Made by a program: the position numbers and the translations under genes. A stretch of DNA of 64,000 nt from Niabella sp. (GTDB lineage Bacteria > Bacteroidota > Bacteroidia > Chitinophagales > Chitinophagaceae), in NCBI GenBank assembly GCA_047601605.1, contig JASGIU010000002.1, forward strand, positions 1,688,370 through 1,752,369, given 5' to 3'. The notes beneath the pieces were generated by a model. The model was not told the origin of the DNA and ran no database searches. It saw only the letters and a program-made list of their open reading frames with translations. This document shows, piece by piece, positions 12,121-32,830 of the stretch (positions within the stretch are counted from its first letter, which is position 1; each line of letters starts with the position of its first letter).

Positions 12121-12993
12121 ATGATAAGTCCTGAAGTTTATCGCGAGAAGTCGCCGTTATCTGAAAAAGATTGCTTTGTTGTTTTTGACCGCAGAAAATC
12201 CAACTTTACTTTCCCCGTGCATATACATCCGGAATATGAACTCAACTTTGTGCACGGTGCCAAGGGTGCAAAAAGAATTGTGGGCGATCTGGAAGAAAGC
12301 ATTACGAACAAAGATTTAGTGCTGATAGCAAACCCTGAACTAAAACATGCCTGGAAAGATGGGGACTGTAAGAACAACAACATACATGAAATTACCATTC
12401 AATTTCATCCGCAACTAATTGAACAATACAAAAACAAAAGCCAGTTCGAGAGCATCCGAGACCTGCTGGAACGTGCCTCAAAAGGTGTGGCATTTGGACA
12501 GGCCACGATAGAAAAAATGCAACCCCTGTTGCAGGTCATTACTATGGAAACAGAAGGGTTTTATTCTGTGATGCGGCTGTTTATCCTCTTATATGAATTA
12601 TCAAAAAGCAATGATTATCGAATACTTTCTTCTGGTACCGACATTGAGATGAACCGCACTACCGAACTGTTAAGTAGGTTGCATGAATATATCAATACCA
12701 ATATTTCCGCAGACATCCGCTTATCGGACGCTGCTAAAGAACTGAACATGAGCAGGTCTACTTTTGCAAGATTTTTAGCGACTAATATACAGATAAGTTT
12801 TACGGACTATGTATTAGACCACAGGATAAAAACGGCCATATTAAAACTAAAAGCAGGGATTTCCATTGCGGAAGTTGCAGACCAATGTGGATTCAACAGC
12901 GTTTCGTACTTCTACCGTGTTTTCAAAAAATCACAGGGCATGAATCCTGCAGAGTTTAGGGATAATTATAAAAAACAACAACTAATCATATAA
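12121..12993 (+). CDS. AraC-family transcriptional regulator (cupin + HTH), likely PUL regulator
   Basis: HIHPEYEL cupin motif and C-terminal IAEVADQCGFNSVSYFYRVFKKSQGMNP. ATG at 12121 preferred over the track start at 11956. Confidence 0.9.
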   Translation: MISPEVYREKSPLSEKDCFVVFDRRKSNFTFPVHIHPEYELNFVHGAKGAKRIVGDLEESITNKDLVLIANPELKHAWKDGDCKNNNIHEITIQFHPQLIEQYKNKSQFESIRDLLERASKGVAFGQATIEKMQPLLQVITMETEGFYSVMRLFILLYELSKSNDYRILSSGTDIEMNRTTELLSRLHEYINTNISADIRLSDAAKELNMSRSTFARFLATNIQISFTDYVLDHRIKTAILKLKAGISIAEVADQCGFNSVSYFYRVFKKSQGMNPAEFRDNYKKQQLII

Positions 12994-13056
12994 CCATATA
13001 CAATTTAAACAGACTTTTCGTTTCCCACTTATACAATTTTTCAAAAACTATTGAGT

Positions 13057-13081
13057 AAATTGTTAAAGAAATTAACAATTT
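13057..13081. promoter_or_regulatory. Perfect 10-bp inverted repeat, candidate operator upstream of susC1
   Basis: AAATTGTTAA-AGAAA-TTAACAATTT. Confidence 0.4.
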
Positions 13082-13271
13082 GGTGATGATTTCCATACAG
13101 TTGTTTCTCTTTTTATCATATTACAAGATGACATTTTTATTACAAAATATATAATATGCTGTTAATCAATACGAATAACAAAAAATACTACTAAAGAAGC
13201 CATTTAATTTTTTGAACTAAAAGTTCAATTGCTATGGGCTTATTTTAAAAAACAGACTTCCGACCCTTAAC

Positions 13272-13370
13272 ATACTTTTAGCTTATTAATTCACCAAATA
13301 AGCCACATGGTATGAAAAGACTATTATTCTTGCTCCTTTTAGGAGCGGTTTGCCATTTTACATGGGCACA
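13272..13370 (+). repeat. Copy 1 of a 99-bp direct repeat (susC leader plus signal-peptide codons)
   Basis: 89/99 identical to 21069-21167 by manual alignment. Contains GCTTATT-N9-AATAAGC. Confidence 0.9.
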
Positions 13371-16300
13371 GAACACCTTTTCTGTTAAAGGAAATGTAAA
13401 GGATAAGCAGAATAATCCTTTAGAAGGTGTTACTGTCGCAATTAAAGGAACAAATGTTGCAACGACATCAGATGTTGACGGAAATTTCAGCATCAACACT
13501 GAAAAAGGAAAAGTTTTGGAGTTTTCCTATGCTGGTGTGAAAACCCAGACAGTTACCGTATCCAACGCTAACGACATCAACATTGTACTGGAAGGGGAAA
13601 GCCAGTTAGATGAGGTTGTCGTAGTAGGTTATGGTGTTCAGAAAAAAGTGAACCTTACAGGCGCTGTGGATATGGTCACATCCAAACAACTGGAAAGCAG
13701 GCCTATTGCCAATTTGGGCTCGGGCTTGCAAGGGTTAGTTCCCAACCTGAACATTACTACATCCAACGGCCGGGCTACCACAAACCCTGCTTTTAATATA
13801 CGCGGCTTCACCAGTGTAAATGGAGGAGACCCACTAATTATTGTTGACAATATCCCATATACTTCTGATGAACTTGCCCGCCTCAACCCAAATGATGTGG
13901 AATCGGTTTCTGTATTGAAGGATGCTGCCGCCTCAGCTATTTACGGTGCGCGCGCCTCATTTGGCGTGGTGTTGATTACCACCAAAAAAGCAAAAGGAAA
14001 TAAACTGAATGTATCGCTGAACGCCATGGTAGGCTACCGCACTATTGGCAAAGTGCCCGAGTTTATTACCGATCCCTACCAGGTAATGGCCATCAAAAAC
14101 GAAGCGGGCAAACCGTTGTATAACAATTATCCCGAGTCTGAGCGGGGTTATGCCAAACAACGTTCGGAAGACCCTTCATTGCCGGCTGTAACCATTTCTA
14201 CAGATGGCAAAAACAAGTGGGTGTACACCGGCACCACGGACTGGTTAAGTGAAGCCTACAACAAATCGGCGCCTACTTACAATGCCAATTTAAGCATCTC
14301 TAACCGCACAGAAAAACTGAGCTACTATTTGTCAGGCGACTATTACCAGCAGGACGGGTTGCTGAAGTATGGCAACGATGTGTACAAACGGTATAATATG
14401 AGGGGTAAAGTAGATTTTAATATCACCAATTGGTTGACACTTTCTAACAACACACAGCTTACCAGCACCGATTATGAGGCGCCGGTTTTCCTGGATGGCG
14501 ACTTTTTCTGGAACGTGAACCGAACCAACTCTCTGGATGTGGTAAGAAACCCCGATGGCAGCTGGACCCGCTCGGCCGCACAAGTACTTGGCGCTTTGCA
14601 GGAAGGCGGCAGGCGCAGGGACAAACTGAATGAATATATTACTACATTCTCTGCAAAAGCGGGCCTGATTAAGAATATCTGGGACCTGAACGCTGATGTT
14701 ACTTTCAGGCGTGGTTCGGGAACAATACGTTCTTACGACATACCTGTACCATATAAAGTAGGGCCCAACGATCCGATTGAATATACATTTTCCAATACCT
14801 GGGCAAAAAATGAAAATACCACTACCGCTTATAATGTGACCAATATTTATACAGATTTTCATAAAAGTTTTGGAGATCATTACCTGCAGGCTTTGGTTGG
14901 TTTTAACCAGGAGTATTATAATTCAGGCTACTTTTGGAATAGGCGCGATGGCCTGATCTCAACCTCACTACCTTCTCCGGGAGTGGCAACCGGCAATATT
15001 ACAGGCAGTGAAAGTATCAGCGACTGGGCTGTTCAGGGCGTATTTTCAAGACTTGCCTATAATTATAAGGAAAAATATCTGCTGGAGCTGAACAGCCGTT
15101 ACGACGGATCTTCCCGCTTCCCCAATGGAAGCCGCTGGGGCTTCTTCCCCTCCGCTTCCGCAGGCTGGGTGGTTTCGCAGGAAAAATTTTTCCAGCCGGT
15201 AAAAGACGCTATTGCATTAAATATGTTTAAGCTGAGGGCTTCTTACGGTACACTTGGCAACCAGTCATCAGTAGGTAATTACGCTTATATACCTACCATG
15301 AGCAATAGCCAGGTGACCTATATACTTGGTTCTACAAGGCCACAGGCTGTATATGCGCCCGGCGCCGTTTCGGGCAATTTTAGCTGGGAAAGTGTGGCTA
15401 CTGTAAACTTTGGGGCAGACCTTTCCTTTTTAAACAACAGGCTGGGGATTAATTTTGATAAATATACCCGTTATACCAACGACATGCTGATTCCGGGCAA
15501 AGAGCTGCCTGGTGTTTTTGGAACAGCTGTACCAACAGAGAACTCAGGCGATTTGAAAACCAAAGGATGGGAGCTTCGCCTGAGCTGGAGAGATAACGGC
15601 GACCTGGCCGGATCTCCTTTCTGGTATAACCTGGCCTTTACCCTGGCCGACAATCGTACCTGGATTACCCGCTATGATAATCCTACCAAATCGCTTGGAG
15701 GTGGATGGGACAGGTATTATGAAGGCAGGGAGATAGGTGAAATATGGGGTGCTGACATCATTGGGTTTTTTAAAGATGAAGCGGATATCACCAATTCTCC
15801 TAATCAGACCGCAATGGGCACAGACGATCAGTCGTATAAATTTTATCCCGGCGATCCCAAGTTTGCCGATCTGAATAAAGATGGTAAAGTGGATATGGGT
15901 AAAAAAACAGTGGATGATCCGGGCGATATGCACATCATTGGCAACAGCGCTTCCCGTTTCCCTTACAGCGCCGATCTTTCGGGCGGCTGGAAGGGCGTAG
16001 ACCTCCGTGTGTTTTTACAAGGTGTTGGTAAAAGGGACTGGTACCCCGGCGCCTCCAATATTTATTTCTGGGGTGTATTTGCACAACCCTGGACCAACCC
16101 TACGGTACAAAATGGTGATTACTGGACCCCTGATAACCCGAACGCATATTTCCCCGCGGTACGGGCGTACTCAGCCGAAGACAACTACCAGCAATTGGGC
16201 ATTCCCAATAAACGTTACCTGCAAAACGGCGCTTATATGCGTGTAAAGAACGTAACGCTGGGATATACGTTGCCGCAATCAGTATTACAAAAAATAAGGC

Positions 16301-16458
16301 TAAGCAAGTTGCGTGTGTACTTTAGCGCCGAGAACATTTTTGAAATATCGCACATTAAAGTGAAGCTCGACCCCGAATCGTTGGGAGACGGCAACCGGCC
16401 CCAGGCTGCGTACCCCTTTCAGCGTACCTACACTTTTGGCTTAAACCTGAATCTTTAA
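13312..16458 (+). CDS. susC: SusC/RagA TonB-dependent transporter 1
   Basis: VVVVGYG, VLKDAASAAIYGARA-type plug motif, RYDGSSRFP and C-terminal YPFQRTYTFGLNLNL. Confidence 0.97.
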   Translation: MKRLLFLLLLGAVCHFTWAQNTFSVKGNVKDKQNNPLEGVTVAIKGTNVATTSDVDGNFSINTEKGKVLEFSYAGVKTQTVTVSNANDINIVLEGESQLDEVVVVGYGVQKKVNLTGAVDMVTSKQLESRPIANLGSGLQGLVPNLNITTSNGRATTNPAFNIRGFTSVNGGDPLIIVDNIPYTSDELARLNPNDVESVSVLKDAAASAIYGARASFGVVLITTKKAKGNKLNVSLNAMVGYRTIGKVPEFITDPYQVMAIKNEAGKPLYNNYPESERGYAKQRSEDPSLPAVTISTDGKNKWVYTGTTDWLSEAYNKSAPTYNANLSISNRTEKLSYYLSGDYYQQDGLLKYGNDVYKRYNMRGKVDFNITNWLTLSNNTQLTSTDYEAPVFLDGDFFWNVNRTNSLDVVRNPDGSWTRSAAQVLGALQEGGRRRDKLNEYITTFSAKAGLIKNIWDLNADVTFRRGSGTIRSYDIPVPYKVGPNDPIEYTFSNTWAKNENTTTAYNVTNIYTDFHKSFGDHYLQALVGFNQEYYNSGYFWNRRDGLISTSLPSPGVATGNITGSESISDWAVQGVFSRLAYNYKEKYLLELNSRYDGSSRFPNGSRWGFFPSASAGWVVSQEKFFQPVKDAIALNMFKLRASYGTLGNQSSVGNYAYIPTMSNSQVTYILGSTRPQAVYAPGAVSGNFSWESVATVNFGADLSFLNNRLGINFDKYTRYTNDMLIPGKELPGVFGTAVPTENSGDLKTKGWELRLSWRDNGDLAGSPFWYNLAFTLADNRTWITRYDNPTKSLGGGWDRYYEGREIGEIWGADIIGFFKDEADITNSPNQTAMGTDDQSYKFYPGDPKFADLNKDGKVDMGKKTVDDPGDMHIIGNSASRFPYSADLSGGWKGVDLRVFLQGVGKRDWYPGASNIYFWGVFAQPWTNPTVQNGDYWTPDNPNAYFPAVRAYSAEDNYQQLGIPNKRYLQNGAYMRVKNVTLGYTLPQSVLQKIRLSKLRVYFSAENIFEISHIKVKLDPESLGDGNRPQAAYPFQRTYTFGLNLNL

Positions 16459-16478
16459 TACCGTAAATTTTCTTTAAA

Positions 16479-18248
16479 ATGAAACGAATTAATTATATAT
16501 TATTAGCTGTTGTGCTGACCGGCGTTTCCTGTAAAAAAGATTTTTTACAGCGAAACCCCCAGACATCCATTACCAAAGAAGCATTTTTTAATACGCCTAA
16601 AGACCTGGAAACTTATACCAACGGGCTTTATGGCCAGTTAAGGGCTAAGTATGAGGATCTTTTCTCCGATAACATTTCCATTAATACGGGAGGCTCCGAA
16701 GCGGACAACCTCATCAGGGGCGGGCTTAATCCTGGCAATGCAGGCGGCTGGAGCTGGGGCAACCTGCGCAGTATTAATTTTATGCTCGACAATGCAGGCA
16801 AAGCTACCGGCGACCAAGCGGCCATTAATCACTATATAGGCGTGGCACGCTTTTTCAGAGCCAATTTTTACTATAATATGGTAAAACGCTATGGCGATGT
16901 GCCCTGGTATTCGCATGTGATCAACTCTAACGAGGAAGACCTCCTTTATAAGGCCAAAGACCCCCGTACTGTGGTGGTAGACTCTATCATGGCCGACCTG
17001 GAGTTTGCAGCCGCTAATGTGCAGCCGGCCCTTACCAATAATACATATGTAACAAAATGGGGCGCGTTGACCCTGCTGGCGAGAATTGCGCTTAATGAGG
17101 GCACTTACCGTAAATATCATACCGAGCTGAACCTGCAGGGATCGGCACAATCTTTTTTGCAGCGTGCTGCCACCGCTTCGCAGGAAATTATGACCAATGG
17201 CGGGTTTGAAATTACCGGCAGCGATCTTGCTGCCTTCCAGGCATTGTTTTCAAGCAATGACATCTCTGCCAATAAGGAGGTGATCTTTTTGCAGAAAAAC
17301 AGCAAGGATCTGGGCATTGCCAACAATAGCCATACCGTGCTTGACTGGCAGTGGGCTTTAAGTTCCAGCCTGGCAGATGAGTTCTTAATGAAGGATGGTA
17401 CGCCGTTCACTTCCCAGGCAAACTACGATAAAAAGGGCTTTGTGGATATGTTTGCCAATCGCGATCCGCGCTTGAGCGAAACCATTATGCCTCCAGGGTT
17501 CAAAAAACAGCCCACAGATAATCCTTACAGAACCCGTCCAGATTTTGGCGGACTGCTGCAGCTGAAGTTTTACCCACGGTATCCGTTGGTTCCGAGCTGG
17601 GAACAAAACTATACAGATTTGCCTATATTCCGCTATGCAGAAGTATTGCTGATCAATGCAGAAGCCAAGGCCGAATTAGGAACGCTTACCCCGGACGATG
17701 TAGAAGCCACCATCAACAAAATACGCGGCCGTGTAGGAATGCCGCCGCTGAATATGGCAGCAGCTAATGCCAATCCGGATGCCTATCTTGCCGCCAGATA
17801 CCCGCTGGTAGCAGGAGCGAATAAAGGGGTGATACTGGAAATACGCCGCGAGCGCCGGGTAGAACTGGCTTGCGAAGGGCTCCGTTTTGACGACCTGTAT
17901 CGCTGGAAAGCAGGTTCGCTGTTAGCGCAAAATACCAGCGGCATGTATGTGCCTGCGCTGGGCGCACTGGATGTAACCGGAGATGGCGTAGCAGATATAG
18001 CCATTTTGAAATCAAAAGATGATGAAAGCCCGATTGCTGGGCTGCCGGCAGATTTGAAAGCCAGCATTTCAAAATATTATATTTCTGATGGCACATTCTA
18101 TTTATCCAACGAAACATCGGGCCGGGTAGTGTTTGTATACGACCAGAAAAATCCCCGGAGCTTTGTGGATCCTAAGTATTATTATTTCCCCATACCGGTA
18201 GAACAAACAGTGCTGAACCCCAAATTAACACAGCCCGAAGGCTGGTAG
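16479..18248 (+). CDS. susD: SusD/RagB lipoprotein 1
   Basis: Lipobox GVSC, FRYAEVLLINAEA, ERRVELACEGLRFDDL and YYFPIP. Confidence 0.96.
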   Translation: MKRINYILLAVVLTGVSCKKDFLQRNPQTSITKEAFFNTPKDLETYTNGLYGQLRAKYEDLFSDNISINTGGSEADNLIRGGLNPGNAGGWSWGNLRSINFMLDNAGKATGDQAAINHYIGVARFFRANFYYNMVKRYGDVPWYSHVINSNEEDLLYKAKDPRTVVVDSIMADLEFAAANVQPALTNNTYVTKWGALTLLARIALNEGTYRKYHTELNLQGSAQSFLQRAATASQEIMTNGGFEITGSDLAAFQALFSSNDISANKEVIFLQKNSKDLGIANNSHTVLDWQWALSSSLADEFLMKDGTPFTSQANYDKKGFVDMFANRDPRLSETIMPPGFKKQPTDNPYRTRPDFGGLLQLKFYPRYPLVPSWEQNYTDLPIFRYAEVLLINAEAKAELGTLTPDDVEATINKIRGRVGMPPLNMAAANANPDAYLAARYPLVAGANKGVILEIRRERRVELACEGLRFDDLYRWKAGSLLAQNTSGMYVPALGALDVTGDGVADIAILKSKDDESPIAGLPADLKASISKYYISDGTFYLSNETSGRVVFVYDQKNPRSFVDPKYYYFPIPVEQTVLNPKLTQPEGW

Positions 18249-18270
18249 CAGTAAAATAACATGGTTATTA

Positions 18271-18306
18271 AGAGAAAAAGCTTTTCTTTTGAAAGGCTTT
18301 TTCTCT
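18271..18306 (+). terminator. Stem-loop after susD1 (terminator or mRNA-stabilising hairpin)
   Basis: AGAGAAAAAGC...GCTTTTTCTCT inverted repeat. Confidence 0.6.
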
Positions 18307-18355
18307 TTGAAGCAGTTAAAAATTGTAACAACGAATTTGTTTAAACTTTTTTGAA

Positions 18356-19255
18356 ATGAAACGAAACGATTTTTTAAAAAGTATTTCATTAACCGCCGGT
18401 ACTTTAGCGCTTACCAGAACCGCATCGGCTACAGCCAAAGCCAAAAAAAAACCGGCGCTTACCATAGCTCATATAACAGACGTGCATATAAGGCCTGATG
18501 AAAATGTTCCGGCCAGGTATGTTCAATGCCTCGAAGAAATTAAAAAAAGGAAAGTGGATTTTTTTCTGAACGGCGGCGACAGCATCCACGCGGCCGATTA
18601 TGAGGATATTACGCGCGAGCGGGTACTGGAACAGTGGAAGTGCTGGGACGAGTGCATGCAAACCCTAAAAGGATACGAAGTGCACAGCTGTGTGGGCAAC
18701 CACGATAACTGGTGGGCTGCGCCATCAAAGGACGATGAAATGTATGGGGTGAACTATGCGGCCAAAAGAGTGGGCATGCTGCACCGTTATTACAGCTTTA
18801 AAAAGAAGAACTGGCATTTTATCATTCTGGATGGCAATAATAATGATGGCATATTGTTGGACAAAGAACAAATGGATTGGCTAAAGAAAGAGCTGGCACA
18901 AGTGCCTGCCGGTGAGCATGTATTGCTGATGTCGCATTTTCCTATACTTACGGTAACCAATACATGGGAAGGCGGCCAGCACAAAGATCATAAAGAGCTG
19001 AAGCAATTATTTTATCAGCACAGAGATAAAGTACGGGTTTGCCTGAGCGGTCACCAGCATTTGCTGGACAGGGCATGGTACAATGATGTACATTATTTCT
19101 GCAACGGCGCCATGAGCGGCTTCTGGTGGGGGAAAGGCAATGAGAACTCTGCACAACCCTATTATTACCAGGAAACACCTCCAGGCTATGCTATATTAAA
19201 ATTGTATGAAAACGGAACCGTAGAAAATGAATATATCGTTCACCGGCACTATTAA
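18356..19255 (+). CDS. Calcineurin-like metallophosphoesterase with Tat-type signal
   Basis: KRNDFLK signal. TDVH, GGD, GNHD, SH and GHQH metal-binding motifs. Confidence 0.9.
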   Translation: MKRNDFLKSISLTAGTLALTRTASATAKAKKKPALTIAHITDVHIRPDENVPARYVQCLEEIKKRKVDFFLNGGDSIHAADYEDITRERVLEQWKCWDECMQTLKGYEVHSCVGNHDNWWAAPSKDDEMYGVNYAAKRVGMLHRYYSFKKKNWHFIILDGNNNDGILLDKEQMDWLKKELAQVPAGEHVLLMSHFPILTVTNTWEGGQHKDHKELKQLFYQHRDKVRVCLSGHQHLLDRAWYNDVHYFCNGAMSGFWWGKGNENSAQPYYYQETPPGYAILKLYENGTVENEYIVHRHY

Positions 19256-19256
19256 A

Positions 19257-20801: not shown

Positions 20802-21068
20802 TTATATAAACACAACAACTTTTTGAGTGGATAATACAAAAACAATGAGCTAATTGTTACAATATAAGCCTTCTATTTAGCTCACCACAGTATCTCTTTT
20901 ATCTGGATTTCCATTTCACAGATATAAACTTCTTAACAGAAACATTTTCCAACTATTTAAAAATAAATATGATAGAAATAGATTCTACTACTTTTAAAGC
21001 AATTTAGTTTTGAGCCGAGGGTTCAAACACAATGAGCTATTATTTAAAAAATATTTTGATGTCAAAAT

Positions 21069-21167
21069 ATACTTTTAGCTTATTAATTCACTAAATAAGC
21101 CATATGGTATGAAAAAACTATTCCTCGTACTGCTTTTAGGAGCTATTTGCCATTTTACATGGGCACA
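21069..21167 (+). repeat. Copy 2 of the 99-bp direct repeat (susC leader plus signal-peptide codons)
   Basis: Offset 7797 bp from copy 1, with 10 mismatches. Confidence 0.9.
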
Positions 21168-24141
21168 AGAAACGATTCCTGTTAAAGGAACTGTCAGGGA
21201 CAAAGACAATAACCCTCTTTCCGGCGTATCGGTAACTATTAAAGAAACAACTACCGGAACCGTATCGGCCGATGATGGAACATTTGCGCTGAACGTTGCC
21301 AAAGGTCAGGTACTTGTATTTTCCTATGCAGGGAAACAGACAACCGAAGTTCCCATTAACAACAACAGGGACCTTACAATCACTCTTATTGACAAAGATG
21401 AGGGCATGGATGAGGTTGTTGTGATTGGCTACGGTACCATCAGGAAAAAAGACCTGACAGGCGCTGTTGCTTCTGTAACAGGAAAAGACCTGCAGGCGAA
21501 CCTGGCCAAAACAGTTGCCGGAGCACTGCAAGGCCGCGTGGCCGGTGTTACCGTAACCAGTGTAGGCGGTCAGCCGGGAAGCGGCATGAACATCAACATC
21601 CGCGGTTTAAGCTCATTAGGCTCTAACACTCCTCTATATATTATAGACGGTGTTTATGGAGATATCAACATGGTAGATCCTGCAGATATAGCATTGGTAG
21701 AAGTTTTAAAAGACGCTTCTGCAGCAGCTATCTATGGTTCCCGTGCTGCGAATGGTGTGGTAATCATTACCACTAAAGGCGGCAAAAAAGGAATGCCTGC
21801 CTCAGTTAATATTAACGCTTATACAGGCGTACAAAGCATTACCAGGAAGCTGGATGTAATGAATGCACAACAGTGGAAAACTATTATGAAAGAATCCGGC
21901 TACTTACCGGATCAGGCAGCTAATTACACAGGAAATGGAACCAACTGGCAGGATGAAATTTACGTAAACGCACCTGTCAGTAAAATTAATGCAGATATAT
22001 CAGGTGGTGGCGACCAATCCACATACAGCGTGTCGGCAGGCTATATTGACCAGTTGGGTATTTTAATGACTACCGGATACAAGGCATTTAATATCCGTGC
22101 AAAAAATACATTTAATTTCTTCAACAATCATTTCCGTTTGGGTAATACATTCCTGGTAAAATCGGGGGACAGGAAATACAGCGACTTCACTATTACAGAT
22201 GCTTTGCGCCAAAACCCGATGATCCCTGTATTAGATCCCAACCAGTTAGGAGGCTATGCGCCCTGGCAGCCGTGGATGAAAAACCTGGATAACCCTGTTG
22301 GCTACTTAAAATTACACAATACCCATGTATACCAGACTGATATACTGGTGAATGGATTTGCAGAAGTTGACCTGTTTGTAAAAGGGTTGAAATATAGGTT
22401 CAACTTAGGCATCAACAGAACAAATGGCAGAAACTACAATTATAATGATCCCTATAATTTTGGTTCGGGCATTACTAAATCTTTTTTATCTGAAAACGCG
22501 TTTTTCAACAACCAGTGGTTAGCCGAAAATACCATTCATTATGATAACACATTTAATAAACACACCGTTTCATTTTTAGCCGGTTATTCGGCACAGGAAA
22601 ACAGTAACAGAGGTTTTGGCGCCAGCCGTAATGATCTGCCTTTTGGAACCAATTCCATCGGTGCAGGTTCTCCTACCGAGCAAAAAACATCCGGTGAATT
22701 ACAGGAGTCTTCTTTGGTTTCTGCTTTTTCACGTTTAATGTATAGCTATGATTCCCGTTACTTATTAACAGCTTCGGTACGTCGCGATGGCTCTTCCCGT
22801 TTTGCCGATGGTAATCGTTATGGCGTATTTCCATCCATAGCCGTGGGTTGGAATATCATGAATGAAAAATTCTTTGCTAATGCAAAAGATAAGATCAACG
22901 AATTAAAATTACGTGCCAGCTGGGGTAAATTAGGGAACCAGGAAATTGGTAATTATCCTACTCAAAGCACAGCGTCTACTGGTATTAACTATCTGCAAGG
23001 TGCCAGCAACAGTGAAGTTTGGTGGCAAGGTGCTATTACCGGCGCCAATTGGGTATCTCCTAAATACCTTACCTGGGAAGAAACCGTTACCAGCAACGTG
23101 GGTATTGATCTGGCCTTCCTGAAAAAGAAGCTTACTGTCAGCGCAGATTACTTCGTAAGAGAAACCCGCAATGTCCTTTTAAGTATCAATATGCCGCCAT
23201 CCGCAGGTTTGAGCGGAGCCCCCACAATGAACGCCGGCACAATTGAGAACAAAGGTTTTGAGTTTTTGGCAACCTACAGAAACGCTATCGGTGAATTAAA
23301 CTATAACATTGGCGTTAATGCTTCTTCTGTTAAAAACAATGTAAAAGCAGTAACGGTAGGTAATGTACAGGAGTTTGGCGGTTACAATCCGCAAAGTGAG
23401 GGCACTATAACCTGGGCTAAAGTAGGTTATCCTATCGGCGGCTTTTGGGCAATCAGAACCGATGGGATTTTCCAATCTGACGCCGAAGTACAGGCCTATA
23501 AAAACGCTAACGGTCAGGTAATACAGCCTGATGCTAATGCTGGTGACATCAAATTCATTGATTTTAATGGTGATGGAAAAATTGCAGATGACGACGCACA
23601 ATACCTGGGTAGTCCATTCCCTAAAATGGCTTACGGTATCAGAGCCGGATTTGACTATAAAGGAATCGATCTGGGTATCTTTTTTGATGGGGTGTATGGT
23701 AATAAAATCTATAACTATACCAGGGCCAGAATGGAATCTACCAATGAGATCATCAACTTCTCTACCAGCCTGCTAAACTCCTGGACCCCGTCTAATACCA
23801 ACACCGATTTACCGCGCTTTACACAACAGGATCCCAATAAAAACTTCCGCCGTGTAAGTGAGCGCTGGATAGAAGACGGATCTTTCTTCCGTTTGAAAAC
23901 GCTTGAAGTTGGTTATACATTACCTCAGCACATCACAAGTCTTGCAAGATTAAAAACCAGCAGAATTTATGTAGCAGGCGACAACTTGTTTACCGCCACC
24001 AGATATAAAGGATATACTCCGGATCTTGGACAGAATGATGAACAAAATGGCGGTGGTTCGGGTACGTTAACCAGAGGTACAGATCATGGCCGTTTCCCTA
24101 TTGCAAGAACTATAATTGTTGGGTTACAGGTTAACTTCTAA
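21109..24141 (+). CDS. susC: SusC/RagA TonB-dependent transporter 2
   Basis: EVVVIGYG, VLKDASAAAIYGSRAANGV, RRDGSSRF and C-terminal FPIARTIIVGLQVNF. Confidence 0.97.
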   Translation: MKKLFLVLLLGAICHFTWAQETIPVKGTVRDKDNNPLSGVSVTIKETTTGTVSADDGTFALNVAKGQVLVFSYAGKQTTEVPINNNRDLTITLIDKDEGMDEVVVIGYGTIRKKDLTGAVASVTGKDLQANLAKTVAGALQGRVAGVTVTSVGGQPGSGMNINIRGLSSLGSNTPLYIIDGVYGDINMVDPADIALVEVLKDASAAAIYGSRAANGVVIITTKGGKKGMPASVNINAYTGVQSITRKLDVMNAQQWKTIMKESGYLPDQAANYTGNGTNWQDEIYVNAPVSKINADISGGGDQSTYSVSAGYIDQLGILMTTGYKAFNIRAKNTFNFFNNHFRLGNTFLVKSGDRKYSDFTITDALRQNPMIPVLDPNQLGGYAPWQPWMKNLDNPVGYLKLHNTHVYQTDILVNGFAEVDLFVKGLKYRFNLGINRTNGRNYNYNDPYNFGSGITKSFLSENAFFNNQWLAENTIHYDNTFNKHTVSFLAGYSAQENSNRGFGASRNDLPFGTNSIGAGSPTEQKTSGELQESSLVSAFSRLMYSYDSRYLLTASVRRDGSSRFADGNRYGVFPSIAVGWNIMNEKFFANAKDKINELKLRASWGKLGNQEIGNYPTQSTASTGINYLQGASNSEVWWQGAITGANWVSPKYLTWEETVTSNVGIDLAFLKKKLTVSADYFVRETRNVLLSINMPPSAGLSGAPTMNAGTIENKGFEFLATYRNAIGELNYNIGVNASSVKNNVKAVTVGNVQEFGGYNPQSEGTITWAKVGYPIGGFWAIRTDGIFQSDAEVQAYKNANGQVIQPDANAGDIKFIDFNGDGKIADDDAQYLGSPFPKMAYGIRAGFDYKGIDLGIFFDGVYGNKIYNYTRARMESTNEIINFSTSLLNSWTPSNTNTDLPRFTQQDPNKNFRRVSERWIEDGSFFRLKTLEVGYTLPQHITSLARLKTSRIYVAGDNLFTATRYKGYTPDLGQNDEQNGGGSGTLTRGTDHGRFPIARTIIVGLQVNF

Positions 24142-24196
24142 GATAATTAAAGAATAACACTCTTTACATTTTATTGATCTAAAAAACGATATTTAA

Positions 24197-25822
24197 ATGA
24201 AAACGTCTATAAAAAAATTATCAGTAGTTGCAGCCGCCGCACTTCTCATGAGCGGGTGTAGTAAAGATTTTTTAAATAAAATAAACCCCAACGCTCCGGT
24301 AGAACAAACATTCTGGACAACAGAGGCCAATGCTGTTTCCGCTATTCCTACAATTTATGCGTCCATCCGCGGTCAGATGTATGGCTATTACGGCGCTTAT
24401 ACAGGATGGCACACAATGAACAGGGCAGATGATGTCTGGTTTATTTTAGGAGAGGAAGTATTGAACTGGGAGCCGGCAACATTCACCAATACGCCCAGCA
24501 CTGCCGAAAGTGATTTCGGCAGACTATATACCGGGGTAAACCGTGCCAATGTATTTTTAAAAAATATCGGTAACGTAAACATGGATGCAACTAAAAAGAA
24601 TGAGCTGATTGGCGAAGCCAGCTTTTTAAGAGGGATGTACTATCTCTTATTGGCATCTAATTTTGGTGATGTTCCCCTTAGGTTAATACCTGCGGGCGAT
24701 GAAGCGGATGGTACCATGAAAGAATCGTCGCCCGAAGCCGATGTCTGGAAACAGGTTATTGCAGATTTTACTACTGCCAAAAACTACTTGCCCTTAAGTC
24801 GTTCTGAGGCAGAAGCCGGCAGGGCTACAAAAGGCGCTGCTATTGCGTTCTTAGGTAAAGCCTTGGTTTATACAAAAGACTACCAAAATGCGGAAAAGGA
24901 ATTAGCAGCTCTTTTAACGGCTCCTTATACTTACGACCTGGTGGATAACTTTGAAGACAACTTTAAAGAAACAACAGAGCTGAATAAGGAATCTGTTTTT
25001 GAAATCATGTATAACGGTAAATTCTCTAATGGCGGCACCTGGGGTAATGACGGAAGTACTACACAGGGTTTTGTAATACCCAACTTTGCCGGATCGGCAG
25101 GTACCGGCGGTTGGTTTAAATGGATGCCTTCGGCTTCTATTGTCAGGGATTTTATTGCCGAAGAGCGTCCGGCAGGCTCTGATACCCGTTTCGACAAAAG
25201 AATGTACACCAGCTTTTTCTGGAAACATTCCGATTTTGAAAGCAATGTTGCAGACGGAGCATGGTTTGGTAACCAGTCTTTTGATGAAATGTGGGAGAAC
25301 GCTTCAGGTAAACGTCAGCGTGGTGAACCGGACTATCCTACCATTAACGGCAAAAAAGGAAGGTTCCTCATTAAAAAATATACCAATTTCTACAAAAACG
25401 TTGCGGATGCCAATAGTATGTACGACCAGTCCAATCAGAACAACAATTTACGTATGTTCCGCTTCTCTGAAGTATTGCTGTTACACGCCGAAGCGGCTAT
25501 CAAAAACGGGAACCTGGGTACAGCTGCAGCCGATTTAAAGCGTATCAGGGTTCGCGCAGGTTTAAATCCCAACAAAACCTGGAGTGGCCCCGACGCGATG
25601 ATGGACGAAGTTATAAAGCAAAATGAACTGGAGTTTTTCTTTGAAGGGCATCGTTTCTTTGATTTGAAACGCACTTACCCTTACGCCCAAATGAAACAAA
25701 TTTTTGTGGACAACAAAAAACAAGGCGCGGAAAACTTCCAGCAAAAGCATTATTATTTGCCCATTCCTCAGTCAGAGATCAACGCGAATACTAAAATCCA
25801 ACAAAACCCATTATGGAAATAA
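24197..25822 (+). CDS. susD: SusD/RagB lipoprotein 2
   Basis: Lipobox MSGC, RFSEVLLLHAEA, LEFFFEGHRFFDL and YLPIPQSEI. Confidence 0.96.
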   Translation: MKTSIKKLSVVAAAALLMSGCSKDFLNKINPNAPVEQTFWTTEANAVSAIPTIYASIRGQMYGYYGAYTGWHTMNRADDVWFILGEEVLNWEPATFTNTPSTAESDFGRLYTGVNRANVFLKNIGNVNMDATKKNELIGEASFLRGMYYLLLASNFGDVPLRLIPAGDEADGTMKESSPEADVWKQVIADFTTAKNYLPLSRSEAEAGRATKGAAIAFLGKALVYTKDYQNAEKELAALLTAPYTYDLVDNFEDNFKETTELNKESVFEIMYNGKFSNGGTWGNDGSTTQGFVIPNFAGSAGTGGWFKWMPSASIVRDFIAEERPAGSDTRFDKRMYTSFFWKHSDFESNVADGAWFGNQSFDEMWENASGKRQRGEPDYPTINGKKGRFLIKKYTNFYKNVADANSMYDQSNQNNNLRMFRFSEVLLLHAEAAIKNGNLGTAAADLKRIRVRAGLNPNKTWSGPDAMMDEVIKQNELEFFFEGHRFFDLKRTYPYAQMKQIFVDNKKQGAENFQQKHYYLPIPQSEINANTKIQQNPLWK

Positions 25823-27642
25823 TACTTCGGGCAGAAGCGATTATTTTAAGATATATAAAACTACCGGGCATTTTATTATGCCTGGTAGTTTTAATTCATT
25901 CCTGCTCGCGTACAGATGCGTTGCCTTCACAAATACCATCCAGATCATCTTTACAGCAAATGGCCGACAATGGGAGTCTCTTAAACCATATTTCACAAAA
26001 CGGATCCGTTTATACTTTTAGTTTTGAAACCGGCGATCTGCAAGTGCCATTGAACGAAATAAAGAAGATCACTGAAGCGCCCGAACGCTGGAAGACCATG
26101 CTCACTTTCAGCGATGGCTCAACACTTGTTATTCCTTCAAAAGGTGGCTCGCTGGATTTTATTGTTGAAGATATAAAGCTGAACCCATCCGGGTACAATC
26201 CGCTCGCGGCAATGGTTTACGTGTATCTCCCCGCCTCAGGCCGGGTAAAGGTAACGGTGCACGGTAAAAATGGCGAAACAGGCGCCATTACTCACTTATG
26301 CCATGAAAAAACGGAGCGGCAGGGTGTTCCTGTCTTCGGGCTATACGCTGATTACGATAATAAAGTCGACCTCACTTTTACCGATAAAAACGGTAATGAA
26401 AGAGGTTCCACGCAAATACATATTCGTACAGAGCCCCTGCCTGTAACAGGTTTTCCGGTTATTAAAGTGATCAGCAGCCAACCCAAAAAGATGGAACCGG
26501 GCATGAACCTGATCGGTTATCCGGGCATGAGCGAGCTGGATGTTTCCTTACCCTACTTCGTGGATGCAGAAGGAAACATTCGCTGGATCCTGCTTCTGAA
26601 ATCGTCTCCGGAGCTTCAGAAACTATCATCTTCCGTAGGATTTAAAAGAACAAAAAAAGGTACATTTATTACAGGAGACCAGTCGCAGGCCAGGATCGTT
26701 GAAATAGACATGTTTGGAAACCTGCTCCGGCAATGGGATTTAAAAAAATCAGGATATGCATTTCACCATGAAGTAACCGAAAGCAAAAACGGGAATTACC
26801 TGGTTACTGTTACTAAATCTTCAGCACGGTTAACCGATGGAAAGCCCAGGATCTATGACTTTATTATAGAACTCAACCCCTTTGACAATTCAATTGTGAA
26901 AGAGTGGGATCTGGCAACCATGGTGGATACCACGCGCTACATAAAATCCGGCGAAAGTGACCTGCCGCCTGAATATGCCCAAAACCCTACCAATTGGGCG
27001 CATAACAATGCCATTACGGAAATAGGCGACGACCTGTTGGCAACTTTGCGATTTCAGGGGATCATTAGCTATACCCGTTCCGGTAACCTGCGATGGATCA
27101 TATCGCCTCATAAAGATTGGGGCGCTAAATACAGACCATACCTCCTAAATCCGGTTGACGAAAAAGGGAATGCGGTTACCGACCCCGCCGTGATAAACGG
27201 AGATGCCGCAACCGAAGGTTTCGACTGGCCCTGGGGAATGCATTCACCCGTAGTTTTACCTGATAACAATATCCTTGTCTTTGACAATGGCTATAACCGC
27301 AACTGGATAGCCAATTCCAAGAGAGACAAAAATTATAGCAGGATTGTTGAATATAAGATCAGTGAAAGCAACCGAACAGTTCAGCAGGTGTGGAGTTATG
27401 GCAAAGAACTGGGGGCCGGCGGGTTTTCTTCGGCTCTATCCGGAGTACAATACCTTACGGTTACAAACAATGTACTGTTTTGTCCGGGTATGGGTGTGCC
27501 TACATCCATCGGCACAGGGGGCAAAGTAATTGAAATAGATCTTCAGACAAAAGAAGTTATTTTTGAAATGGAAATAGCAACACCAAGCGGTACTGCATTT
27601 CACAGGGTAACACGTCTGCCATTATATCCAGACTCAATTTAA
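25813..27642 (+). CDS. assT: Aryl-sulfate sulfotransferase (ASST) lipoprotein
   Basis: Lipobox IHSC, Ig-like NPSGYNPL/PVFGLYADY region, and catalytic-type FHHE, WAHNN, TLR and WGMH. Overlaps the susD2 stop by 10 nt. Confidence 0.82.
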   Translation: MEIILRAEAIILRYIKLPGILLCLVVLIHSCSRTDALPSQIPSRSSLQQMADNGSLLNHISQNGSVYTFSFETGDLQVPLNEIKKITEAPERWKTMLTFSDGSTLVIPSKGGSLDFIVEDIKLNPSGYNPLAAMVYVYLPASGRVKVTVHGKNGETGAITHLCHEKTERQGVPVFGLYADYDNKVDLTFTDKNGNERGSTQIHIRTEPLPVTGFPVIKVISSQPKKMEPGMNLIGYPGMSELDVSLPYFVDAEGNIRWILLLKSSPELQKLSSSVGFKRTKKGTFITGDQSQARIVEIDMFGNLLRQWDLKKSGYAFHHEVTESKNGNYLVTVTKSSARLTDGKPRIYDFIIELNPFDNSIVKEWDLATMVDTTRYIKSGESDLPPEYAQNPTNWAHNNAITEIGDDLLATLRFQGIISYTRSGNLRWIISPHKDWGAKYRPYLLNPVDEKGNAVTDPAVINGDAATEGFDWPWGMHSPVVLPDNNILVFDNGYNRNWIANSKRDKNYSRIVEYKISESNRTVQQVWSYGKELGAGGFSSALSGVQYLTVTNNVLFCPGMGVPTSIGTGGKVIEIDLQTKEVIFEMEIATPSGTAFHRVTRLPLYPDSI

Positions 27643-27661
27643 TATATTAATACAGGTAATT

Positions 27662-28846
27662 ATGAACGGTACATTTCAGAAAAAATTAGAAGAACTTACA
27701 CAGTCGTACAACCAGCTAATTGCTGCGCCCAATTCACCATCCGGTCAGTATAATGGTCTTGTTCAGCGGTTTCAAAACCCCATCCTTACAGCCAGCCATG
27801 TTCCCCTGTCCTGGCGGTATGATCTTGACCCCGAAACGAACCCGTTTTTAATGGAACGTTTTGGTATCAATGCGGTTTTTAATGCCGGCGCCATTAAATG
27901 GAAAGGTAAGTACCTGGTAATAGCACGGGTGGAAGGCTATGACCGGAAATCATTCTTCGCCATTGCTGAAAGTCCCAACGGGATTGATCATTTTACCTTT
28001 TGGGAGTATCCTGTTCAACTTCCTGAGATAGATGAAAAAGAGACCAACGTATATGACATGCGTTTAACAGCACATGAAGACGGATGGATATACGGATTGT
28101 TTTGTTCTGAAAGCAAAAGTCCTGATGCATTGCCGGGCGACCTGTCCAGCTCAAGAGCTGACACAGGTATTGTAAGAACAAAAGACCTCATTAATTGGGA
28201 AAGACTTCCCAACCTTGTGGCCTCCAGCCATCAAAGGAACGTGGTGCTGCACCCCGAATTCATGAACGGAAAATATGCTTTGTATACCCGCCCGCAGGAT
28301 GGTTTCATTAATGCAGGAAAAGGAGGCGGCATCAGCTGGGCGTTAATTGATGACATGAGAAATGCAATAGTGGAAAAAGAAACATTAATTGACGAAAGGC
28401 TTTATCATACCATTAAGGAAGCCAAGAACGGGGAAGGTCCGCATCCCATTAAAACAAAGAAAGGGTGGCTGCACCTGGCACATGGTGTAAGAGAATGTGC
28501 CGCGGGACTGCGCTATGTGCTGTATTTATACCTGACAGACCTGAAAGAGCCGCAAAAAATCATAGCCAGTCCTGCAGGATATTTCATGGCGCCTCTTGGC
28601 AAAGAGCGGGTTGGCGATGTATCGAATGTACTGTTTTCAAACGGCTGGATCTGCGATGATGATGGTACTGTTTATATTTACTACGCTTCAAGCGATACCC
28701 GCATGCACGTAGCTGTAACTTCGGTTGACCGACTGTTGGACTATTGCCTGAACACTCCCACAGATGGGCTGCGTTCGGCAGAGTCTGTGAAGCGCATTAC
28801 TGAGCTCATTAATAAAAATCAAAAGTTCCTGCAACAACATGTCTAA
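27662..28846 (+). CDS. mgp: GH130 4-O-beta-D-mannosyl-D-glucose phosphorylase
   Basis: WRYDL..ETNPFLMER, RVEGYDRKSFF, NVYDMR, YTRPQDG, HTIKEAKNGEGP and GDVSNV, as in the B. fragilis MGP subfamily. Confidence 0.92.
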   Translation: MNGTFQKKLEELTQSYNQLIAAPNSPSGQYNGLVQRFQNPILTASHVPLSWRYDLDPETNPFLMERFGINAVFNAGAIKWKGKYLVIARVEGYDRKSFFAIAESPNGIDHFTFWEYPVQLPEIDEKETNVYDMRLTAHEDGWIYGLFCSESKSPDALPGDLSSSRADTGIVRTKDLINWERLPNLVASSHQRNVVLHPEFMNGKYALYTRPQDGFINAGKGGGISWALIDDMRNAIVEKETLIDERLYHTIKEAKNGEGPHPIKTKKGWLHLAHGVRECAAGLRYVLYLYLTDLKEPQKIIASPAGYFMAPLGKERVGDVSNVLFSNGWICDDDGTVYIYYASSDTRMHVAVTSVDRLLDYCLNTPTDGLRSAESVKRITELINKNQKFLQQHV

Positions 28847-28953
28847 ACTTTTGCTATTTTACTTAATGGCAGGCAGATAGTGCATTGAAGTATCTAAAAC
28901 AACAATCATACACGCAAATAATAACAATTACGAAAGCATTAAAGCAAGTACAG

Positions 28954-30372
28954 ATGAGCAAAATTAAACTGAAAGAAAAAATCGGGTATGGCTTGGGGGA
29001 TGCTGCCTCCTCTATGTTCTGGAAGATTTTTGGAATGTACGCCTTGTTTTTCTATACCGATGTCATGGGCATTACCGCGGCGGCTGCAGGCACCATGTTT
29101 TTGGTTGCAAGGGTATGGGACTCTTTCTTTGATCTTTTTGTAGGCATAATGGCCGATCGTACAAAAACCAGGTGGGGACGGTACAGGCCTTACCTGTTAT
29201 GGTTCGCTGTTCCATTTGCCGTGATGGGCGTTATAACTTTTTTCGTTCCTGATTTTGGAAGTGCCGGTAAGCTGGTGTATGCATATATTACCTATTCTTT
29301 AATGATGATCGTGTATTCGCTCATCAATGTGCCATACGCGTCTTTATTAGGCGTAATGTCGTCCGATTCCAAGGAGCGGAATATACTGTCCTCCTATCGT
29401 ATGTCATTTGCCTTTATAGGAAGCTTTGTAACTTTTATGCTGCTCCAACCGCTGGTAGACGGATTCAGTGGTATGTTTAATAATGGTGCCATTTCTTCAA
29501 ATATGGATACTGGCATTAGCACGGCACCTATGGGATGGACACTTGCCGTGGCTTCTATCGGCGTGCTATGCGCCATCCTCTTTTTCCTTTGTTTTAGCTG
29601 GACAAAAGAAAGGGTAGCATCCATCAGCAATGATGCAAAAGGATCTGTAAAGGAAGATTTGAAAAACCTGATGCGCAATGCCCCGTGGTGGATACTGGTA
29701 GCTACGGGTCTCGCTTCCTTATTATTCAATGCTGTCCGGGACGGGGTGGCTATTTATTATTTCAGGGATCATGTGCAATTAAATTACAAAATGCCGATAA
29801 CTGGCTGGGATGCTACAACCATTTATTTTCTTATCGGTCAGGCGGCTAATTTAGTCGGTGTTATATTGGCCCCTGTCCTTTCTGAAAAATATGGGAAGAA
29901 AAAAACTTACATGATGGCCACGGCCTTAGCGGCTGTATTTAGTGCAATATTCTTTTTTGTTCCCAACCATATCGGTTGGATATTATTTATGCAAGCTATC
30001 ATATCAGTATGCGCAGGCTATGTATTGCCCTTACTCTGGAGCATGTTCGCCGATATCGTAGACTATCAGGAACTAAAAACCAACCGAAGGACATCGGGTC
30101 TTATCTTCTCATCCTCTTCCATGTCACAAAAGCTGGGATGGGCGTTGGGCTCGGCATTAACAGGATGGATTCTCTTTATTTTTAATTATAGGCCGCATTT
30201 GGCACAACAAAGCATGGAAACCATTTTTGGTGAGCGGTTGATGATAAGTCTGCTGCCAGCTCTTTGTTGTGTGCTGGCATTTATCGGGATGTCCTTTTAT
30301 CCGCTTAATGAAAAAAGAGTAAAAGAGATATCCGGAGAATTAGATCAAAGACGCAATGCCCAAGAAAACTAA
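28954..30372 (+). CDS. GPH/MFS sugar:cation symporter (mannosylglucose/mannobiose type)
   Basis: KEKIGYGLGDAASSMFW, DRTKTRWGRYRP and WSMFADIVDY; directly follows mgp as in Bacteroides man operons. Confidence 0.9.
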   Translation: MSKIKLKEKIGYGLGDAASSMFWKIFGMYALFFYTDVMGITAAAAGTMFLVARVWDSFFDLFVGIMADRTKTRWGRYRPYLLWFAVPFAVMGVITFFVPDFGSAGKLVYAYITYSLMMIVYSLINVPYASLLGVMSSDSKERNILSSYRMSFAFIGSFVTFMLLQPLVDGFSGMFNNGAISSNMDTGISTAPMGWTLAVASIGVLCAILFFLCFSWTKERVASISNDAKGSVKEDLKNLMRNAPWWILVATGLASLLFNAVRDGVAIYYFRDHVQLNYKMPITGWDATTIYFLIGQAANLVGVILAPVLSEKYGKKKTYMMATALAAVFSAIFFFVPNHIGWILFMQAIISVCAGYVLPLLWSMFADIVDYQELKTNRRTSGLIFSSSSMSQKLGWALGSALTGWILFIFNYRPHLAQQSMETIFGERLMISLLPALCCVLAFIGMSFYPLNEKRVKEISGELDQRRNAQEN

Positions 30373-32770: not shown

Positions 32771-32830
32771 TGATATCGTAGCTATCCGAAAATGTCCATT
32801 GACGAATCAAAGACAGATAAAAACAAGTGT

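Follow-up and report, generated by a model that had tools for sequence, protein, structure and literature searches.

We analyzed a stretch of 64,000 nucleotides from the genome of Niabella sp., a soil or water bacterium (GenBank assembly GCA_047601605.1, contig JASGIU010000002.1, positions 1,688,370 to 1,752,369 of the forward strand), hereafter the window, which hosts a polysaccharide utilization locus (PUL) that joins a GH5 of the endoglycoceramidase (EGCase) type to a mannosylglucose phosphorylase (MGP). By combining the listing of open reading frames with Pfam and NCBIfam scans, we identified ten genes in a single run on the + strand between positions 11956 and 30372. Two SusC/SusD pairs, a GH5, a GH130 and an AraC regulator lie side by side, as expected of a PUL. 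An initial annotation had described the locus as a co-oriented array of AraC, two SusCD pairs, a phosphoesterase, an EGCase-like GH5, an arylsulfate sulfotransferase-family protein (ASST), a GH130 MGP and a GPH transporter, and all these genes were recovered. It had also stated that the locus lacks a GH26 mannanase and a cellobiose 2-epimerase (CE), and indeed neither was found in the 64-kb window. The features of the locus are the following:

12121..12993, + strand: AraC-family regulator (HTH_18/HTH_AraC; longest open reading frame 11956-12993)
12994..13311, + strand: regulatory region, copy 1, which aligns end to end with copy 2 and with the sequence between araC and susC in the Niabella genomes G001, G010 and G034
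13312..16458, + strand: SusC1, a chimera with an AraC-PUL-type head (up to ~13620) and an ECF-sigma-type body (TIGR04056, 847 bits)
16479..18248, + strand: SusD1 (SusD_RagB; 90% identity to the Niabella aquatica SusD of the GH5 PUL)
18356..19255, + strand: calcineurin-like metallophosphoesterase (MPE; MPE298) with a Tat-like MKRNDFLK signal (PF00149; 89% identity to the N. aquatica gene)
19257..20801, + strand: GH5, EGCase-like, with an SPI-type signal peptide (NCBIfam, PDB sequence matches, AlphaFold/Foldseek)
20802..21108, + strand: regulatory region, copy 2, aligned with copy 1 and its relatives and starting with ATTATATAAAC
21109..24141, + strand: SusC2 (TIGR04056, 854 bits; 91% identity to SusC2 of the AraC-SusCD-ASST-MGP-GPH locus of G001)
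24197..25822, + strand: SusD2 (Pfam match; 94% identity to G001)
25813..27642, + strand: ASST-family lipoprotein (PF05935, 283 bits)
27662..28846, + strand: GH130_1 MGP (PDB matches to BfMGP and RaMP1)
28885..30372, + strand: GPH-family sugar:cation symporter (TIGR00792, 385 bits)

In our reading, these genes form a mosaic of a backbone (AraC, SusC2, SusD2, ASST, MGP and GPH) and an inserted cassette (SusC1, SusD1, MPE and GH5). The regulator probably starts at 12121 rather than at 11956, as its relatives align only from residue ~40-56, and it shares 65-88% identity with the regulators that head AraC-SusCD-ASST-MGP loci in other Niabella and in Chitinophagaceae. The symporter shares 77-88% identity with its counterparts in other AraC-type loci. 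The Tat-like signal of MPE is conserved among its relatives, the protein is probably periplasmic, and the N. aquatica orthologue also lies directly upstream of GH5.

The backbone is shared with several congeners. The genomes G001, G002, G005, G008, G010, G011 and G032 carry a locus with the order AraC-SusC2-SusD2-ASST-MGP(-GPH), whose proteins are 64-94% identical to those of the window, and of the 34 further Niabella genomes in our sample, 13 have ASST next to MGP. We scanned the genomes of 185,579 species for MGP and considered the best 79 loci with their neighbours within 10 kb. CE occurs in 44 of these loci and GH26 in 45. ASST lies near MGP in ten of them, from Niabella, Chitinophaga, Chitinophagaceae, Sphingobacteriales, Parabacteroides goldsteinii, Tannerellaceae and a Prevotella metagenome-assembled genome (MAG), and all ten lack both CE and GH26 within this distance. 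The associated carrier varies, from GPH to SSF and MFS proteins in Chitinophaga and to no adjacent carrier in P. goldsteinii. Overall, AraC-SusCD-ASST-MGP is a compact and conserved PUL type distributed over Chitinophagales, Bacteroidales and Sphingobacteriales (examples are L049, L056 (Chitinophaga), L080 (Parabacteroides goldsteinii DSM 19448), L053, L066, L098, L060 and L048). The spacing between MGP and GPH differs within the genus, with ~940 nt in G001 (L033, 14834-15771) and 38 nt in the window.

To our knowledge, MGP is known only as the final step of a mannan pathway that requires the epimerase. Using the CE of this genome as query, we searched 20 Niabella genomes (E <= 1e-20). Orthologues are present only where MGP adjoins GH26/CE (G000, G001, G012, G022 and G023), and none was detected at this threshold in the other 15 genomes, 13 of which have an AraC-type MGP (G002, G005, G008, G010, G011, G013, G017, G019 and G030-G034). 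The remaining two fall outside this count, as G015 has an MGP whose context was not part of the survey and no MGP was seen in G020. The family PF07221 is not specific to CE, and a PF07221 scan of the eight non-Niabella genomes with the ASST-MGP PUL is therefore uninformative on CE.

The initial annotation had allowed that CE might be encoded elsewhere in the genome, which is 3.85 Mb long in four contigs. This is the case for both CE and GH26: a canonical mannan PUL (L011) lies at 714-734 kb of the same contig, ~965 kb from the window, and is composed of SusD, TIG, a metallophosphoesterase, GH26, GH43, GH26-CBM35, MGP, a 427-aa protein, GPH and CE. The epimerase encoded there is a true CE (3WKF, E=4e-110) and the only one of the genome, the sole other PF07221 protein being an N-acylglucosamine 2-epimerase (8BRY, E=5e-234). 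This CE is paired with a separate MGP and GPH, which share 69% and 55% identity, respectively, with those of the window. We rejected CE encoded elsewhere as an explanation, since the CE of the genome has an MGP/GPH pair of its own and the AraC-type genomes of the genus lack CE. The MGP/GPH pair of the window is thus supported as part of a CE-independent system. The metallophosphoesterase of the mannan PUL (L011, 5828-7333; MetallophosN/C, 501 aa) is located between the TIG surface protein and GH26, and is 85% identical in G001.

The window MGP aligns without gaps to BfMGP over residues 5-390 (3WAS, E=4e-185, 67% identity) and is 60% identical to RaMP1 (5AY9, E=5e-155), so that its match to characterised MGPs is both full-length and high-scoring. 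In an alignment of 16 sequences, 142 of 400 columns are invariant across AraC-type, CE-linked, BfMGP and RaMP1 proteins, and only three positions fixed in the references are altered in every AraC-type protein (R21, D183N and S219K/R/N in BfMGP numbering). In the corresponding tree, AraC-type MGPs fall into clades of their own (support 0.98), away from BfMGP, RaMP1 and the CE-linked proteins. The enzyme is predicted to phosphorolyse Man-beta1,4-Glc in the cytoplasm, yielding Man-1-P and Glc. As in the B. fragilis mannan operon (BF0771-BF0774, encoding GH26 mannanase, MGP, symporter and CE), the GH130_1 MGP of the window is followed by a GPH-type symporter. Unlike in that operon, neither GH26 nor CE is linked to it, its MGP belongs to a separate clade, and its partners are ASST and an EGCase-like GH5; the B. 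fragilis-type mannan set is present separately, at L011.

The window ASST matches E. coli AssT (3ELQ, E=5e-48), and the AssT (PF05935) catalytic residues His436, His356 and Arg374 (E. coli numbering) are aligned and kept in the predicted protein. ASST is just 57-69% identical to all other Niabella ASSTs, and its neighbours SusD2 and MGP reach 93-94% identity with their G001 counterparts, which indicates a probable local replacement, or a fast divergence, of ASST alone.

The cassette has a different origin. In N. aquatica and in a contig from the European Nucleotide Archive (L031), its orthologues lie in a locus composed of ECF-sigma, FecR, STN-SusC, SusD, MPE, (GH20), GH5 and a 531-aa GH16, with GH123, an EEP phosphoesterase, GH16 and GH29 nearby. 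The identities with the window are 86% for SusC, 90% for SusD, 89% for MPE and 83-88% for GH5. The SusC1 protein shares 86% identity with N. aquatica SusC from its residue 131 onward, and at the nucleotide level positions 13211-13634 of the window, comprising the regulatory region and the first 107 codons of susC1, are 84% identical to the susC head of the AraC PUL of G034. From ~13609-13624 on, susC1 shows 80-85% identity to the ECF-type susC of N. aquatica and L031. Because identity switches from the AraC type to the ECF type at these positions, the crossover falls in the conserved DEVVV(V/I)GYG motif of susC. The cassette of the window has no sigma/anti-sigma genes and SusC1 has no STN domain. 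Judging from these alignments, the SusC1-SusD1-MPE-GH5 block derives from a PUL under ECF-sigma control and was recombined, as a cassette, into the space between araC and susC2. Like classical Bacteroidota PULs under hybrid or ECF-sigma control, the locus has SusC/SusD pairs, periplasmic glycosidases and cassette-like exchange, and the relatives of the cassette retain the trans-envelope control by ECF sigma, anti-sigma and STN-SusC typical of such loci. Unlike them, the window has STN and the sigma/anti-sigma pair replaced by an AraC-dependent region in two copies, and has two SusCD pairs in one locus.

The second regulatory copy starts right after the stop codon of GH5 with ATTATATAAAC, which is the sequence found at the end of araC in G001. 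The 307 nt that follow GH5 can be aligned from end to end with the araC-susC1 region of the window and with the araC-susC spacers of G001, G010 and G034. Three blocks are conserved, at ~13028-13068, 13210-13239 and 13271-13311 in copy 1 and at ~20821-20859, 21008-21040 and 21068-21108 in copy 2. They correspond to an upstream box, a TTGAAC..GTTCAA palindrome and a TACTTTTAG -7-like box with a near-identical leader, all shared by both copies. A 22-nt version of this leader occurs exactly twice in the genome, and the conserved leader is absent from the other clusters of the genome. A scan for sigma-70 promoters and terminators returned counts at chance level. Since each susC is preceded by a full regulatory copy, both cassettes are probably co-regulated by AraC and induced together.

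We then asked what the GH5 of the cassette is. Its closest homologues are those of N. aquatica (83% identity) and of a Niabella sp. MAG (77%). The best NCBIfam match is endoglycoceramidase I (NF051847), with 124 bits compared to a cut-off of 700, and the protein is hence no EGCase equivalog. The EGCase subfamilies are GH5_27/28/29 (PMC3526467). Among PDB sequences, the best match is Rhodococcus EGCase II (E=8e-40), with both domains aligned and the NEP and GEWG motifs in register, and EGALC, EGCase I and then fungal sterylglucosidases follow. Mannanases are absent from the PDB sequence matches and cellulases contribute one match (E=3e-7). The catalytic NEP (E210) and GEWG (E380) are invariant across 27 GH5 homologues.

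The AlphaFold model of GH5 (pLDDT 90.6) has the EGCase-type C-terminal beta-sandwich and the aligned pair of catalytic glutamates. When it was compared to solved structures with Foldseek, ranks 1-15 were occupied by EGCase II, EGCase I and EGALC (target-normalised TM 0.74-0.82), with EGCase II on top (TM 0.81, E=2e-30), and ranks 16-31 by sterylglucosidases. The 31 best solved relatives are thus all glycolipid hydrolases. The nearest non-glycolipid GH5, which comes next, is nine orders of magnitude weaker, with E=1e-13 compared to 1e-30 for the best match. As in the Rhodococcus EGCases (EGCase II 2OSW/2OSX, EGCase I 5J14, EGALC 6JYZ; GH5_28/29), a (beta/alpha)8 domain is followed by a C-terminal beta-sandwich, and the acid/base NEP, the nucleophile GEW/FG and the LDMHQD motif are aligned. 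Unlike them, the window GH5 shares only ~21-24% identity over the structural alignment, has an extra helical insert, belongs to a Bacteroidota SusCD PUL and is probably periplasmic. The fungal sterylglucosidases/EGCrP2 (Sgl1 7LPO, SglA 8EXD), which are the second-best structural relatives (E ~1e-22), are GH5s that cut the beta-glucosidic bond to a lipid aglycone; in contrast to the window GH5 they are much larger (target-normalised TM 0.47-0.55), exo-acting on single glucose, cytosolic and eukaryotic.

By sequence and modelled fold, the GH5 therefore belongs to the glycolipid-active GH5 clade and not to the mannanase or glucanase type. The description of GH5 as EGCase-like holds, with EGCase II as the top match in both comparisons, even if far under the equivalog cut-off. 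The alternative that it cuts glucomannan as a mannanase or glucanase does not, given that sequence and fold matches return only glycolipid hydrolases at the top (E=1e-30 vs 1e-13). We rejected GH5 as a mannanase or glucomannanase, as no mannanase appears in the sequence or fold matches.

Is the association of the cassette with MGP functional? In the genus, the cassette genes join MGP-GPH in three arrangements: the one of the window, ASST-MGP-GPH-MPE-GH16(531) in G019 (L043, contig C175) and AraC-SusC-SusD-GH16(531)-MGP-GPH in G034 (L037/L047), where GH16(531) is the 531-aa protein. In 35 Niabella genomes, an AraC-type MGP is found in six of the seven with GH5 and in nine of the 28 without it (P-value = 0.016, Fisher test, phylogeny ignored), and in 11 of the 14 with GH16(531) and four of the 21 without it (P-value = 0.0007, Fisher test, again ignoring phylogeny). 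The two modules could also be independent PULs that susC recombination has set side by side, with MGP acting on foreign glucomannan fragments or on mannobiose epimerised by CE. In favour of this, the modules are unlinked in most genomes, CE and GH26 are available in this genome, and susC recombination could plausibly generate PUL mosaics even if coupling were not selected for. We nevertheless consider mere juxtaposition unlikely, because a full regulatory copy was kept before each susC and the ECF/STN control of the cassette was lost, because three distinct configurations join cassette genes to MGP-GPH and the two co-occur across genomes, and because AraC-type MGP genomes generally lack CE and the mannan PUL already has a dedicated MGP/GPH pair. 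The coupling between cassette and MGP thus appears real and loose, and functional coupling of some kind is likely. AraC, MGP and GPH look like a common catabolic core that takes various uptake cassettes.

The explanation that we favour, with a probability of roughly 0.55, is that the locus is a mosaic PUL in which a SusC1/D1-MPE-GH5 cassette was inserted into an AraC-SusC2/D2-ASST-MGP-GPH backbone, and in which the product of the cassette feeds MGP without CE. The backbone would take up a substrate containing beta-Man-(1->4)-Glc and split it in the cytoplasm into Man-1-P and Glc, with neither CE nor mannanase. The crossover would have stripped the STN domain and added a second full AraC-PUL regulatory region, so that the cassettes would be induced jointly. 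A glycoconjugate would be imported via SusC1/D1, a phosphoester substituent would be removed by the phosphoesterase, and GH5 would then cleave the beta-glucosidic bond between a glycan ending in Man-beta1,4-Glc and its aglycone. The released Man-Glc would enter the cytoplasm through GPH and be phosphorolysed by MGP. Homology favours a lipid as the aglycone, either ceramide or sterol, and we consider it about equally likely to be a sugar, within an oligosaccharide that is imported.

Several observations weigh against this explanation. GH5 and MGP are adjacent within 10 kb in none of the 79 best MGP loci, so that the expectation of an EGCase-MGP linkage conserved in other genomes was not borne out, and the exact form is found only in this genome. 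Five congeners have GH5 at other positions, MGP is absent from 49 genomes with distant EGCase-like GH5s, and no EGCase-like GH5 occurs in the eight non-Niabella genomes with the ASST-MGP PUL. On these three counts (0/79 loci, 49 and eight genomes) we rejected a broad EGCase-MGP linkage. Because the ASST-MGP PUL occurs without an EGCase-like GH5 in most Niabella and in the eight other genomes, MGP has a supply that is independent of GH5. ASST has no explained role in the putative Man-Glc pathway, and co-regulation is predicted from the sequence. Further observations weigh against the original glycosphingolipid reading. A helical insert of ~60-90 residues (about 214-302) lies beside the acid/base residue of GH5 and is missing in EGCase II. 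GH5 is probably periplasmic because of its ordinary signal peptide; its orthologues mostly carry ordinary SPI signals as well, except for one with a CDDG motif, which is a lipoprotein. The frequent GH16 lipoprotein partner, with its CBM-like domain, suggests a glycan polymer as substrate.

The genes that accompany GH5 elsewhere provide indications on the substrate. In G034, G010, G019 and G001, the GH5 orthologue lies within a cluster of GH123, EEP, GH16, GH29, GH5 and a purple-acid-phosphatase-like gene. A similar cluster without GH5 is present ~420 kb from the window (L039, C2:2122000-2139999; core at C2:2.125-2.136 Mb), and this GH123/GH97 cluster lacks the conserved leader that would tie it to the AraC regulon. 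It is composed of SusD, a BT_3987-like/F5-8C surface protein, EEP, GH97, GH123, EEP, GH16, GH29-F5/8C and a purple-acid-phosphatase-like gene, and its GH97 scores 740 bits against the retaining alpha-galactosidase model. Overall, the company of GH5 orthologues consists of GH123, GH20, GH29, GH97 alpha-galactosidase and EEP or purple-acid-phosphatase-like (PAP) phosphoesterases. The caveat that longer glycans would need hexosaminidases is thereby eased: none is present in the window, and GH123 and GH20 are found beside GH5 orthologues, with a set in this genome ~420 kb away. In G039, from a distant family, an EGCase-like GH5 with 37% identity lies directly beside an EEP (Exo_endo_phos2) protein outside any PUL (L028, contig C1), so that the GH5-EEP pairing recurs far from Niabella.

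GH123 is a beta-GalNAc-ase family first defined on glycosphingolipids, and arthro-series glycolipids bear alpha-Gal and fucose caps. Among natural beta-glucosides of Man-Glc, the one that we know of is Man-beta1,4-Glc-Cer. In the arthro-series, the Man-beta1,4-Glc-Cer core is extended with GlcNAc and then GalNAc, and bears phosphoethanolamine or phosphocholine substituents (PMC10337751). The families found near GH5 fit the sugars and the phospho-substituents of these glycolipids. As a special case of the mosaic with a lipid aglycone, the substrates may be invertebrate (arthro- or mollu-series) or plant glycosphingolipids, which exo-glycosidases and phosphoesterases from other loci would trim to Man-beta1,4-Glc-ceramide, with GH5 acting as EGCase and Man-Glc passing through GPH to MGP. 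In support of this, GH5 groups solely with hydrolases of ceramide or sterol glycosides, the neighbours match Gal-alpha/GalNAc-beta1,4-GlcNAc-beta1,3-Man-beta1,4-Glc-Cer linkage by linkage (in part after PMC10337751, with the alpha-Gal cap and the linkages as general background), a CE-free MGP fits a Man-beta1,4-Glc-Cer source, and a distant EGCase-like GH5 also adjoins an EEP phosphoesterase.

Other evidence makes glycosphingolipids a doubtful substrate. With its SPI signal, GH5 would meet them in the periplasm, and we know of no precedent for the import of ceramide lipids by SusCD. The helical insert beside the acid/base residue and the 124 of 700 bits also separate GH5 from EGCases, two GH16 genes are left unaccounted for, and the exact linkage exists in one genome only. 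In none of the loci that we looked at did we see a ceramidase gene or a gene of sphingoid-base catabolism. EEP proteins as sphingomyelinases were rejected, as they do not match characterised ones beyond the superfamily level, and this also counts against a glycosphingolipid substrate. In a wider version, dispersed GH97, GH123, GH20, GH29 and EEP/PAP/MPE enzymes would strip the glycan to mactosylceramide, the phosphoesterases taking off phosphocholine or phosphoethanolamine, from which GH5 would free Man-beta1,4-Glc for the CE-free MGP/GPH wired to the same AraC promoter; we propose this only tentatively and hold it to be rather improbable. The original suggestion that GH5 frees Man-Glc from glycosphingolipids and makes CE unnecessary therefore stands in part: GH5 is of the glycolipid clade and MGP/GPH are CE-independent, and on the other side the adjacency is unique, GH5 is likely periplasmic and GH16 points to a glycan.

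The 531-aa GH16 has a lipobox, FN3, the catalytic motif FEIDVFE and a CBM-like C-terminus (Pfam E=2e-6), and has no match in PDB or NCBIfam. It directly follows GH5 in N. aquatica and L031 and adjoins MGP-GPH in G034 and G019, and in this genome it lies outside the window with a SusCD pair of its own, 416 kb away. These features raise the possibility of a non-lipid glycan, which the surface GH16 would cut as a beta-linked and possibly phosphorylated hetero-glycan. MPE would dephosphorylate the fragments in the periplasm, and GH5, accommodating a sugar at +1 as an endo-enzyme or as a disaccharide-releasing beta-glucosidase, would free Man-beta1,4-Glc. The periplasm-type signals of GH5 and MPE and the usual role of SusCD in glycan import agree with this scheme, and GH16 co-occurs with AraC-type MGP more tightly than GH5 does. 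However, the close structural relatives of GH5 all act on lipid aglycones, GH16 is remote from the window, and we know of no polysaccharide with both GH16-cleavable links and Man-beta1,4-Glc units. We regard a non-lipid glycan as possible, if somewhat doubtful.

The mosaic arrangement itself is no assembly artefact, because the two regulatory copies are only ~70-86% identical and susC1 is an intact in-frame chimera. The flanks of the PUL are unrelated to it. Arginine biosynthesis genes and PMSR precede it, and it is followed by two transglutaminase-like DUF3857/3858 proteins and by glutamate synthase. The transglutaminase-like pair consists of tandem paralogous DUF3857-transglutaminase-DUF3858 proteins of 673 and 646 aa, encoded at 30749-34732 on the strand of the PUL after a gap of 376 nt. 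In contig C8 of G005 (L018, L021, L023 and L044), the GH5 orthologue is broken by stops, and in the AraC-type locus SusD2 is fragmented and ASST has a TAG, which suggests either that both modules are decaying in this genome or that the MAG contains sequencing errors.

In the literature, we found no paper that connects endoglycoceramidases to PULs, MGP to glycosphingolipids, or ASST to SusD, and both the CE-free ASST-MGP PUL type and PUL cassettes with an EGCase-like GH5 appear to be undescribed. The locus offers a clean natural case of PUL evolution through cassette capture, with a regulatory swap from ECF-sigma/STN to AraC. Since a widespread AraC-SusCD-ASST-MGP PUL type does without the epimerase, some natural source of Man-beta1,4-Glc has been overlooked. 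The genome of the window is the best lead to this source, as it has a cassette with a glycolipid-type GH5 under the same putative control, whose relatives accompany glycosidases fitting the glycans of animal and invertebrate glycolipids. If our explanation is true, SusCD-based foraging would extend from polysaccharides to glycolipids or other glycosides, many 'endoglycosylceramidase' annotations of Bacteroidota would gain a function, and new enzymes for glycolipid analysis would become available. Were glycosphingolipids the substrate, the locus would represent a first PUL-type route for their catabolism, and would reveal for the first time how a GH130_1 phosphorylase can obtain its substrate in nature without CE. 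Glycolipid foraging by Niabella is plausible.

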